Assembly (NCBI GenBank): GCA_046758445.1
Contig: JBHIAE010000071.1
Location: 1 to 12,959 of the forward strand
Source of the DNA: Candidatus Thorarchaeota archaeon
Lineage (GTDB): Archaea; Asgardarchaeota; Thorarchaeia; Thorarchaeales; Thorarchaeaceae
Reading direction: 5' to 3'
DNA length: 12,959 bases
In this document: piece by piece, positions 10,303 through 12,959 of the stretch
Numbering within the stretch: the stretch's first letter is position 1
How the letters are laid out: the number at the start of each line of letters is the position of its first letter
Notes under the pieces: generated by a model
Told to the model about the DNA's origin: nothing
The model's database searches: none
What the model saw: only the letters and a program-made list of their open reading frames with translations
Program-made: the position numbers and the translations under genes

Positions 10303-11186
10303 TATGAATCGCCCTCCGACACAGTCCCTCTCCCCATGATTTCCAGTAGGCGATACATCTCACCATACTTGTTCTCTAGGTTCATGTGCTGTTCTAGATT
10401 CGACTTTACGTTGGTGTAGAGCTCCCTAAAGTCATTGGTGTCCTGAGTGAGTGTGGCCAGTCCACTCTCAAGTTTCGATTGGAAATTCCTCAAGACACTG
10501 TCAACATGCGGATTCTCCTTGTGCAATGCTGCATGGAGGGCACAGGAATTTGACATGATACTGCCAGTGAGAAGCAGCTGGACTGCAAAGGTTGTGCCAC
10601 CCAGTCGCCTCAACGACGTCAGGTCTTCATCCGACAGGACTGAAGCTATGATCATGTTCACGAAGTATGGGAGAGAAACAGTAAGAGCCATGGCTCTATC
10701 ATGCTCTTCTCGGTCTACAGTGATGATCTGATACTTCGGGAAGAGTGCTTCAACGAGTCGCTGCTCGTCTTCTGGGTCCGATATCGGAACAAGTACCATC
10801 TTCTTATTCAATGAACGCGCACCCGGCCCAAACATTGGATGGATGGACAGAGGTCGTAACTGGAGAGCCACAATCTCATGAAGAACCTCGGGTATCTTTC
10901 CCTTTACGGATGATATCTCGCAGAGAACAGCATCTCGTTTCATGTGCGGAGCGACTTCTTGAATGACCTCGGCCGTAATCTCTATTGGCACTGAGATGAC
11001 AACCACATCAGCATTCTTCGCAGCTGCTGCATTGCTACTTGCCAGAGTCAGGTCGAATAACTCAGCTATCTCTCTCAATTCATTGCTTTGGGGATCTGAA
11101 GCTATGAGAGTGTGGCCGTGTTCATCGAAGTGTTCGAGAAGCCACCTACCCATCCGTCCTGCTCCACCGATGACTGCAATTTTCAT
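10302..11186 (-). CDS. tyrA: TyrA-family prephenate/arogenate dehydrogenase
   Basis: MKIAVIGGAGRMG Rossmann motif, VISVPI, EISSVK, SIHPMFGP, EEHDRAMA, GGTTF. GGAGGTG RBS and ATGA overlap at 11186-11183. The 39 extra N-terminal residues of the track ORF are overlap with the upstream gene. Confidence 0.93.
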   Translation of the reverse strand: MKIAVIGGAGRMGRWLLEHFDEHGHTLIASDPQSNELREIAELFDLTLASSNAAAAKNADVVVISVPIEITAEVIQEVAPHMKRDAVLCEISSVKGKIPEVLHEIVALQLRPLSIHPMFGPGARSLNKKMVLVPISDPEDEQRLVEALFPKYQIITVDREEHDRAMALTVSLPYFVNMIIASVLSDEDLTSLRRLGGTTFAVQLLLTGSIMSNSCALHAALHKENPHVDSVLRNFQSKLESGLATLTQDTNDFRELYTNVKSNLEQHMNLENKYGEMYRLLEIMGRGTVSEGDS

Positions 11187-12580
11187 CTCAACACCTCCTC
11201 CATTTGCTCCATTGCTTTGACAAGCAATTCCTTGGGCTGACAGACTGCTACTCTGAAGAATAAAGCATATTGAGAACCATAGACAGTCCCGGGCATTACA
11301 CATACGCCGGTTTCCGAGAGAAGCCGCTCTGCAAACTCCCGGCCTCGCATTAGTCCCTCGGCTAACTTAACGAAAATGTAGAAACCACCGTCAGCTTGGC
11401 GGAATGTAACCGGAAGTCTGCCCAGTAGTTTGTTGGTGATATCCAGCCTAGACTTGATCGTCGCTGCGTTGTCCTGCACTTCCTCTTCACAATCAAGTGC
11501 AGCAAGACCAGCATACTGAATGAACTCGGGAACACAGGTGACGTGCAAATGCTGCAGGCCAGCCATCTTCTTGATTGTGTCTTTGTCAGAAACTGCATAT
11601 CCCAATCTGAACCCGGTCATTCCATACGGCTTAGAGAAAGACTTGACAGTGACCTGGTTGCAATGCGGAAACTGTAGAATGCTTGTGTGGGGAGAATATG
11701 AGAATCTTGAATAGACCTCGTCGCTGACGATGCGAATGTCATTCTCTGCTGCAAGATCGACCAGCTTTCTCATTGTTGATTCGTCGAGTACTTTGCCAGT
11801 TGGATTGCATGGACTGTTCAGCATGATCATTCTTGTTGACGGGCTGACATTCCTTTGCAGAAGATCTACATCGAGATCCCAACCGTCATCTAGGTCAGTT
11901 GGAAAGTGGATAGGACGTCCGCCTACAGCTCTCACACACCTAGAATACGCCGGAAAGGACGGGTCGATGATAATGACCTCCTCCCCCGCTTGAATAGTTG
12001 TGGCCATACTTAGGAAGAGCGCATACTTGCCGCTCAAAGTCACAATGACTTCTTCCGGCGAGACATCTCGATCATATCGGGAACCGAGCTTATCGGCGAT
12101 CTTCTCCCTGAGAGATGGTATCCCAACAGACGGCGTATAGTGAGTGCATCCTGAGTCTACCGCCTCTGCCATGGCCTTCAATGCTGCTTCAGGAGGGCCA
12201 AAGTCTGGCTCACCTACTTCGAGATGGATTACTTCCCTCCCAGAACGTTCCATCTCCTTCGCTCTTACAAAGTGGGCGTGGGCATTGAATGCAACATTCG
12301 GCTCCGCGTCCTTCCTTTGTATACGAATGGAATCAGAGATGAGCTGGTTGAGCAGTCTTGCTCCGAAATCAGGATCAACACCAATCCCTCTGCATCGATT
12401 GACTACTGCCTCTCTTAGGTGAATCTCGACTTCACGATTGATGACTGGCGCTCCCAGGGCTGTTTTCTCCTTGGCCACATCTTCCACAAGCGAGTTGCGC
12501 CGTCCAACGCAATCTATGATCTCAAGTGTGATTCTCTCAATCTTACTGCGTAAGGCATCTAGCTGTGCCCTCTCTGTCAA
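11183..12580 (-). CDS. Fusion: AroQ-type chorismate mutase (N-terminal ~90 aa) + class I/II PLP-dependent (aspartate/aromatic/prephenate) aminotransferase
   Basis: N-terminus LDALRSKI...RRNSL...KEK...REVE...DSIRIQ fits the AroQ pattern. The C-terminal part has HLEVGEPDF, HYTPSVGIPSLR, NSPCNPTG, SDEVY, SFSKPYGMTGFRLG (PLP Lys) and GGFY. TTG 12580 is preferred over ATG 12628 because AAGGGGGT lies 9 nt upstream and AroQ homology begins right there. Confidence 0.9.
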   Translation of the reverse strand: MTERAQLDALRSKIERITLEIIDCVGRRNSLVEDVAKEKTALGAPVINREVEIHLREAVVNRCRGIGVDPDFGARLLNQLISDSIRIQRKDAEPNVAFNAHAHFVRAKEMERSGREVIHLEVGEPDFGPPEAALKAMAEAVDSGCTHYTPSVGIPSLREKIADKLGSRYDRDVSPEEVIVTLSGKYALFLSMATTIQAGEEVIIIDPSFPAYSRCVRAVGGRPIHFPTDLDDGWDLDVDLLQRNVSPSTRMIMLNSPCNPTGKVLDESTMRKLVDLAAENDIRIVSDEVYSRFSYSPHTSILQFPHCNQVTVKSFSKPYGMTGFRLGYAVSDKDTIKKMAGLQHLHVTCVPEFIQYAGLAALDCEEEVQDNAATIKSRLDITNKLLGRLPVTFRQADGGFYIFVKLAEGLMRGREFAERLLSETGVCVMPGTVYGSQYALFFRVAVCQPKELLVKAMEQMEEVLR

Positions 12581-12765
12581 AGACCATCGACCCCCTTTGA
12601 GATGATTACAGTCAGCTCTCTGTTGCATGACATGAATTCACTAGCCACTAGAGAGGTCCCATCGGGAATCCCAGCATTTGCAGAGTCATCAGTTAGAACC
12701 ATAGAATCACCAGAACAAGGACCTGGGGTAAACAGGTCAAAACAAGTCAGTGACTCTCGAATCAC
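12577..12765 (-). other. 62-codon bridging upstream ORF (no Tyr or Trp codons) between the leader peptide and the first operon gene
   Basis: Its GTG start (12765) overlaps the leader TGA (GTGA) and its TGA stop (12579-12577) overlaps the TTG start of the fusion gene (TTGA). No recognisable homology. Confidence 0.35.
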
Positions 12766-12787
12766 AGACTATAGCTATAACTATAGT
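12720..12787 (-). terminator. Putative attenuator RNA structures: three hairpins and a U-rich tract
   Basis: In mRNA sense: H1 ACUAUAG-UUAUAG-CUAUAGU (12787-12768, on the Tyr codons); H2 AGUC-U-GUGAUU-CGAG-AGUCAC-U-GACU (12770-12745, containing the leader stop) followed by UGUUUUGACCUGUUU; H3 GACCUG-UUUACCC-CAGGUC (12738-12720). Found by eye; no folding energies computed. Confidence 0.5.
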
Positions 12788-12860
12788 AGCCACTAAACTG
12801 ACCGGCTCTACCAGTCATGTACATGTAAGTGGCTTTCTCAGTGAACTTCGAGAGTTTCAT
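12762..12860 (-). CDS. Putative Tyr-rich leader (attenuator) peptide, 32 aa: MKLSKFTEKATYMYMTGRAGQFSGYYSYSYSL
   Basis: Manual translation of the minus strand from ATG 12860 to TGA 12764-12762 gives 6 Tyr, 2 Phe and 0 Trp, with the cluster TAC TAT AGT TAT AGC TAT AGT just before the stop. It lies between the putative promoter and a tyrosine-biosynthesis operon. Internal Met13 and Met15 are alternative starts. Confidence 0.8.
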   Translation of the reverse strand: MKLSKFTEKATYMYMTGRAGQFSGYYSYSYSL

Positions 12861-12885
12861 TAGCCGGCTTCTTCTCTACGAAGCC

Positions 12886-12899
12886 TATTATACTTTGTC
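12886..12899 (-). promoter_or_regulatory. Putative archaeal promoter (BRE-like GACAAAG + TATA-like TATAATA) for the leader/aro operon
   Basis: The minus strand reads tGACAAAG-TATAATA-ggc. The box ends 25 nt before the leader ATG, the spacing expected when transcription starts at or next to the ATG (leaderless mRNA). Confidence 0.6.
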
Positions 12900-12959
12900 A
12901 GCAGAGCGGCTCTGTTGCAAAACTGATGTAACACTCGGACAGAAAGAGTGGGAGGGGTG

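Follow-up and report, generated by a model that had tools for sequence, protein, structure and literature searches.

At the head of the tyrosine operon of this Asgard archaeon (Thorarchaeia) lies a conserved leader in which a short ORF (ORF1), enriched in codons for the operon's own amino acid, is followed just past its stop codon by a box (C) with two possible partners, the opening bases of the ORF (A) and a downstream block (E) containing a Shine-Dalgarno site. These parts are kept among relatives, the helices P1 to P3 covary, the two pairings of C are mutually exclusive and nearly iso-energetic, and ribosomes stalled on the Tyr codons are predicted to shift C towards E. We give somewhat less than an even chance (roughly 0.45) to the reading of the leader as a ribosome-mediated tyrosine attenuator, for which we infer where transcription starts, that ORF1 is translated, that ribosomes stall on its Tyr codons and what the output is. 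The attenuator reading is suggested by a Tyr-specific operon whose invariant leader codons are Tyr; by a leader that is single-copy, limited to this operon head and decayed where the operon is absent; by the covariation of P1, P2 and P3 and the joint change of A, C and E between clades; and by a geometry in which the Tyr codons end 1-3 codons ahead of the stop and C lies 1-6 nt past it.

The window, that is, the whole stretch of 12,959 nt that was analysed, is one complete contig of a 3.25-Mb archaeal assembly (93% complete). The features discussed below are:

12886-12899, minus strand: archaeal promoter, a TATA-like box (12886-12892) with a purine-rich upstream flank, conserved in orthologs
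12762-12860, minus strand: leader ORF1, 32 codons plus stop with six Tyr codons, from the ORF list and ortholog comparison
12847-12856, minus strand: A box, 5′ strand of P1, nt 5-14 of the predicted transcript, pairing with 12753-12761
12788-12834, minus strand: inner helices P2 (12828-12834 with 12788-12794) and P3 (12811-12817 with 12799-12805), from covariation and minimum free energy (MFE) folds
12768-12788, minus strand: Tyr/Ser codon cluster including the H1 palindrome (z -3.6), with a conserved consensus
12746-12761, minus strand: post-stop C box, containing the 3′ strand of P1 (12753-12761) and overlapping a Shine-Dalgarno-complementary segment (12749-12757)
12720-12738, minus strand: hairpin H3, from folding against shuffles and its identical position in every lineage
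12700-12719, minus strand: block E, conserved, with a pyrimidine-rich tract (12712-12719), the Shine-Dalgarno site GGTGAT (12706-12711) and the ORF2 ATG (12700-12702)
12577-12702, minus strand: ORF2, 41 codons and present in all related loci, with a TGA that overlaps the TTG start of operon gene 1
11183-12580, minus strand: operon gene 1, chorismate mutase fused to a class I aminotransferase (Pfam), TTG start

The tyrosine operon and its leader ORF

Pfam assignments show that the minus strand of the window is one operon of tyrosine synthesis, in the order mutase-aminotransferase, prephenate dehydrogenase, dehydroquinate synthase, DAHP synthase and dehydroquinase (genes 1-5), followed by shikimate dehydrogenase, shikimate kinase, EPSP synthase and chorismate synthase (genes 6-9), with seven shikimate-pathway genes 3′ of prephenate dehydrogenase. 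Its content is Tyr-specific, both the Phe and the Trp branches being absent from it. The prephenate dehydratase gene of the same genome (pheA, G000:C3:87147-87677) has no comparable leader upstream, and anthranilate synthase (Chorismate_bind, trpE) was not found in the whole genome, at the 93% completeness of the assembly. A Phe-rich small ORF on contig C42, followed by an ORF that looks ureohydrolase-like by eye, was considered as a sister leader and rejected as probably a chance occurrence. The genome also encodes a eukaryote-like actin (match of 439 bits), in keeping with its placement in Thorarchaeia.

The first TATA base lies 31-33 nt from the ORF1 start codon in every ortholog locus, and this start codon, ATG or GTG, has no Shine-Dalgarno site ahead of it in any of the loci; a leaderless leader transcript is predicted. 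Between the TATA box and the leader start, an inverted repeat (12866-12885), flagged by the scan as terminator-like on the plus strand, is kept only within the three-member subclade of the window; it may serve as an operator, or as the terminator of an upstream gene that has since been lost. Upstream of the promoter, the contig end (12900-12959) is repeated with 92-100% identity at at least four other contig ends and inside two more contigs, and probably marks the end of a repeat or mobile element at which the assembly breaks; the close relatives L009 and L010 have a small zinc-ribbon-like ORF in its place.

Four of the six Tyr codons of ORF1 fall in its final eight codons. Across 22 related loci the ORF is 29-32 codons long, with 3-5 Tyr within its last 9-11 codons; every indel inside it keeps the reading frame, its length being a multiple of three, and the orthologs differ in their stop codon, of which all three kinds occur. 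Two TAT codons are invariant (19/19 leaders) within a cluster of consensus Y-S-G-x-Y-x-Y, in which the codons between the fixed Tyr vary (Ser, Trp, Ile, Arg) and the Ser codon is always AGY, compared to about one third genome-wide. The ortholog alignment has no third-position substitution pattern in ORF1, variability being flat across the codon positions.

The ortholog set comprises the 22 of 87 genomes in the same order that have the fused mutase-aminotransferase, nearly all of which carry a small upstream ORF ending in the same Tyr cluster. A covariance model built from 19 leaders has a single match in each of 23 genomes out of the 87, and its matches sit only at this operon head, save one in a genome without the operon. 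In such a genome of the same genus, a leader copy (L154, G013:C148:1985-2086) has decayed: its TATA box is mutated, the start codon is lost, stops interrupt the ORF and the Shine-Dalgarno site is replaced, with P1 and H3 still recognisable. Upstream of the most divergent ortholog (L018 in G022, 40% identity) the model gives no match; the TATA box there precedes a small ORF of another kind, in which Trp, Tyr and Phe are abundant. The fused genes of Nitrososphaeria lie directly behind aroC and have no leader. Metagenomes searched with a first pattern gave no loci, and a second pattern gave five, all genuine near-copies of known leaders; a wider scan of the genome contigs did not have the family itself among its matches. 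No Rfam family, the T-box, known leaders and riboswitches included, matched anywhere in the window at gathering thresholds, nor in 12560-12959 at a permissive threshold (E up to 10).

Helices competing for the post-stop box

P1 is a long-range helix that joins the first bases of ORF1 to the box just past its stop. The duplex has -9.9 to -14.6 kcal/mol in 18/19 loci, and five of its 11 pairs have double compensatory changes. P2 and P3 both appear in the per-sequence MFE folds. In P2, 85% of cells are paired and three pairs have changed on both strands; in P3, the figures are 84% and four pairs. Taken together, the three helices are paired in 82.9% of cells, compared to 32-40% in slid-partner controls, and include 12 pairs changed on both sides; their covariation score of 0.289 (at most 0.079 in controls) was reached by 0/500 shuffles. 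Unguided RNAalifold recovers P1 and P3. Instead of P2, it favours a pairing of the invariant P2 segment GUGGC with the Ser/Tyr codons GCUAU (about 12771-12793; alignment columns 68-72 with 86-90). Since both partners are invariant, covariation cannot choose between this pairing and P2, and GUGGC/GCUAU may be a further alternative helix within the leader.

The leader ORF with the post-stop box (12751-12860, 110 nt) folds at -42.5 kcal/mol (z -5.0, 0/200 shuffles), and the segment from the stop to the second ATG (12699-12762, 64 nt) at -19.5 kcal/mol (z -2.8). The whole stretch of 301 nt (12580-12880), the folding of which had been suggested as a check in a preliminary description of this DNA, does no better than its shuffles (z -0.87); as the sub-domains are significant, the signal resides in them.

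In most clades the C box begins 1-6 nt past the ORF1 stop; in one genus a 15-nt insert carries the Shine-Dalgarno-complementary segment. C pairs either with A, forming P1, or with E, and the two helices share 5-6 nt, so that mutually exclusive helices meet on one strand beside the leader stop. In the window C:E is formed by 12749-12757 with 12703-12711, with H3 stacked on top. Its energy is -12.7 to -20 kcal/mol in the genus of the window and one other clade; in this second clade it is the stronger (-16 to -20 kcal/mol), and A, C and E have all changed together. It beats its shuffles in these two clades only (mean z -1.3 overall), and because elsewhere it is no better than shuffles, C:E is less secure than P1.

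Between C and E lies H3 (-7.1 kcal/mol, z -3.3, 1/200 shuffles), a hairpin already proposed for the window, which is kept in every lineage. The H3 sequences are unrelated between clades, with z from -4.5 to +0.2 and mostly below -1. No conserved competitor for H3 was found, which argues that H3 itself is not switched.

Block E has a conserved order, a pyrimidine-rich tract followed by GGTG(A/G)T and ATG. GGTGA and GGAGG are strongly enriched 6-15 nt ahead of start codons genome-wide, which implies that the motif in E is a real ribosome-binding site. The ATG opens ORF2, which has 25-52 codons across the related loci and an unconserved sequence, and which always ends -5 to +14 nt from the start of the first gene, often in TTGA or ATGA; ORF2 is predicted to act as a relay or decoy ORF. 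A '62-codon bridging ORF', a fusion of ORF1 and ORF2 by frameshift or read-through, was rejected, the frame relation being 0, 1 or 2 among orthologs. In some genera ORF2 has a Tyr cluster of its own: L017 (G023) carries a second Y-F-S-G-Y-Y copy, and the clade of L044, L048 and L049 has three Tyr within eight ORF2 residues. These lineages may sense tyrosine twice. No conserved helix of E with downstream sequence (a '3:4' helix) was found among the orthologs.

Predicted response to ribosome position and possible outputs of the switch

For the choice made by C, we used the free energy of downstream minus upstream pairing of the C core, computed from constrained ensembles and given as the median. 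In free RNA this difference is +1.6 kcal/mol, the two states being nearly iso-energetic. With a ribosome on the first, middle or last Tyr codon it is +0.6, 0.0 and -1.0 kcal/mol, respectively, and it drops to -7 kcal/mol when the first 18 nt are masked. The predicted accessibility of E is 0.38 with a ribosome at the stop and 0.35 in free RNA; it falls to 0.28-0.30 when a ribosome stalls on Tyr and to 0.26 when the start is masked. The Shine-Dalgarno site of E has a pairing probability of 0.32 with the C box and of 0.40 with variable downstream sequence. These equilibrium effects are small and vary between orthologs. The shifts in ensemble and accessibility suggest an RNA that is poised, in which stalling, and more so a ribosome queue, would push C onto E, and in which a finishing ribosome, or none, would leave E exposed.

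In the attenuator reading, the operon transcript would begin at the ORF1 start codon or one or two bases from it. With no ribosome, ORF1 would close into the P1-P3 domain and a small hairpin over the Tyr codons, with C paired with A, and a ribosome arriving at the stop would cover C; in both situations the tract, the Shine-Dalgarno site and the second ATG of E would be exposed. A ribosome held on the Tyr codons would melt the inner scaffold and abut P1, and queued or initiating ribosomes would cover A. C, freed by the stalled ribosome, would then pair with E, with H3 as the clamp that brings them together. Since a biosynthetic operon needs negative feedback, with the stalled state being ON, hiding E would have to mean ON. 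The most likely variant of the output, though itself doubtful, is that exposed, ribosome-free E permits early factor-dependent termination or polarity of the FttA/aCPSF1 type, with C:E as the antiterminator. Archaeal termination relies on U-rich RNA and FttA/aCPSF1 instead of hairpins (PMC7515710; PMC13681488). Within the window, T runs in the tract do not exceed 2, and genome-wide the regions after genes show hardly any enrichment of T runs, so these data hold no evidence of the tract as a termination signal. In another variant, which we regard as improbable, exposed E would drive the translation of ORF2, which would occlude the start of the first gene.

A role as a ribosome-binding site accounts for E in full, so OFF is just as plausible a meaning of its hidden state. 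A translational attenuator with exposed E as ON is an unlikely but substantial alternative: stalling would let P1 form first and keep C off E, ORF2 would be translated and would hand ribosomes to the first gene via the overlapping stop and start, and C:E would hide the ORF2 Shine-Dalgarno site. E indeed combines a good Shine-Dalgarno site with an ATG at the genome-wide spacing, ORF2 always ends at the start of the first gene (the usual layout of positive coupling), and holding C in P1 raises the predicted accessibility of the Shine-Dalgarno site from 0.26 to 0.38. In addition, P1 would keep more ribosomes from loading at the leaderless start, and leaderless poly-Cys ORFs that free a sequestered ribosome-binding site are a bacterial precedent (10.1101/834739). 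However, this alternative requires P1 to win on stalling, whereas ribosome-masked folding goes the opposite way, with a stall or queue favouring C:E and a ribosome at the stop exposing E; under exposed E as ON, this direction would give positive feedback. Tyr codons, used as a test of direction, are moreover not depleted in ORF2 overall (25 observed compared to 27 expected).

Alternatively, the P1-P3 domain could itself be the sensor, riboswitch-like, T-box-like or a protein-binding site, with the ORF incidental or secondary. Such a domain would fit the riboswitch-like layout, in which covarying stems surround unpaired bases that are invariant and the closing helix shares its 3′ strand with an expression platform, as well as the flat codon positions of ORF1 and the fixed AGY Ser codons. 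We nevertheless give it little probability, as in all loci the start codon lies at the predicted transcript start, the ORF1 indels are in frame, the stop, by whichever of the three codons, always just precedes the C box, the Tyr codons stay fixed as the intervening cluster codons vary, and no Rfam family matches even at E 10.

The preliminary description had proposed a switch set by ribosome position and resembling a terminator/antiterminator pair, drawn with H3, a hairpin over the leader stop (H2) and a pairing of AGAGUCA with UGACUCU. Read as a bacterial-type intrinsic attenuator, with H3 and its U-rich tail as the terminator and either H2 or the pairing of AGAGUCA as the alternative structure, this is very improbable. 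All of its pairings, including H1, are present in the sequence where they were placed, and the consensus scan flags the conserved H3 as terminator-like. H1 (12768-12787, -6.7 kcal/mol, 1/200 shuffles) is a significant fold, but this form needs a 6-nt insertion private to the subclade of the window; in other clades, small hairpins unlike H1 span the Tyr codons. H2 (12745-12770, -9.1 kcal/mol) is marginal against shuffles (z -1.8, 7/200 as good), and among 23 leaders (mean z -0.6) only those of the window and of the two relatives nearest to it have such a hairpin over the stop; it is absent in orthologs with a TAG stop because TAG cannot form it. The pairing of AGAGUCA with UGACUCU (12751-12757 with 12682-12688) is an exact 7 bp, but it is clade-private (mean z -0.6), and together with H2 it is confined to the three closest related leaders, the window included. 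The U-rich run directly past H2 is not conserved either: the conserved tract lies directly 5′ of the ORF2 GGTG. The tail of H3 is weak and not always adjacent, with 7-9 non-U bases between H3 and the tract in one clade, and no GC-rich hairpin with a U run that an alternative helix would block was found. In addition, C:E cannot form until the tract has left the polymerase, and so could not control a hairpin-dependent terminator.

What the comparative data do bear out is the broader idea of an RNA switch at the leader stop that is set by ribosome position, with a hairpin and a pyrimidine-rich tract, both conserved, downstream of it. The particular switch that was drawn fails, H2 and the alternative pairing being clade-private and H3 having no conserved competitor; the competing helices that have covariation support, A:C (P1) and C with the Shine-Dalgarno region, were not part of it. 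Factor-dependent archaeal termination, suggested at the time in place of a bacterial-type terminator, is a live option. It had been overlooked that a Shine-Dalgarno site adjoins the tract and opens a second small ORF, itself conserved, which makes translational control a serious alternative to termination.

A constitutive structure that does not sense tyrosine, such as an mRNA-stabilising 5′ domain, would suit the small predicted regulatory amplitude and is scarcely probable, as it leaves unexplained the invariant Tyr codons, the geometry of stop and C box, the exclusive association with the Tyr operon and the near iso-energetic competing helices.

Known leader systems and what an archaeal attenuator would mean

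The trp, phe and his leaders of Enterobacteria share with the tyrosine leader a short ORF rich in cognate codons before a biosynthetic operon, regulatory codons just ahead of the stop, and a post-stop segment which is covered by the terminating ribosome and otherwise chooses an upstream or a downstream partner. In contrast, the host here is an archaeon, the start is predicted to be leaderless and a second small ORF precedes the first gene; the upstream partner is the very 5′ end, in a helix that closes the whole ORF; and there is neither a 3:4 terminator hairpin with a U run nor a match to an Rfam leader.

The tna operon of E. coli is controlled through Rho-dependent termination, governed by events at or just past the stop of the TnaC leader; TnaC senses the free amino acid and stalls at its stop, and the operon is catabolic. 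To our knowledge, Rho is absent from archaea. In the termination reading preferred here, the likeness lies in a factor-dependent rather than hairpin-dependent termination that would be set at or after the leader stop, and the difference in the factor, Rho there, for which the archaeal analogue would be FttA/aCPSF1 (PMC7515710; PMC13681488).

The leaderless poly-cysteine ORFs of mycobacteria (10.1101/834739) likewise head biosynthetic operons as sensory ORFs, work via ribosome pausing and have the Shine-Dalgarno site of the next ORF in an alternative helix. There, the stalled ribosome directly blocks the sequestering strand. In the tyrosine leader, a ribosome on the Tyr codons would not reach the complementary strand with its footprint, and the folds predict that stalling increases sequestration instead of reducing it. 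Translational attenuation of the ermC/cat type is similar in that the position of the leader ribosome rearranges the helices that hold a downstream Shine-Dalgarno site; it depends on drug-dependent, peptide-specific arrest and four segments, compared to amino-acid codons as the trigger and three conserved segments here.

According to an explicit statement in the literature, archaea have no known case of attenuation or antitermination (PMC8448881), and no archaeal attenuator that would be a later counter-example was found in the literature searched. The tyrosine leader looks like leader-peptide attenuator logic, so far described only in bacteria, in a new domain. Its architecture is distinct: the closing helix contains the start, which is predicted to be leaderless, a terminator hairpin that has a competitor is lacking, and a putative relay ORF is present. 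That a ribosome stalled on Tyr codons makes C hide the pyrimidine-rich segment from FttA/aCPSF1, with C:E as an antiterminator helix acting against factor-dependent termination without a terminator hairpin, and that this is the first attenuation mechanism in Archaea, in an Asgard lineage, is a tentative and rather unlikely proposition.

The leader, at about 165 nt, is a compact and mutable object for tests of transcription-translation coupling, FttA-type termination and RNA structure in archaea. If the attenuator reading is true, ribosome-sensed control by an amino acid exists in the domain closest to eukaryotes, and it makes use of components typical of archaea, with transcription from a TATA promoter, translation from a leaderless start and a relay ORF as the coupling to the first gene.
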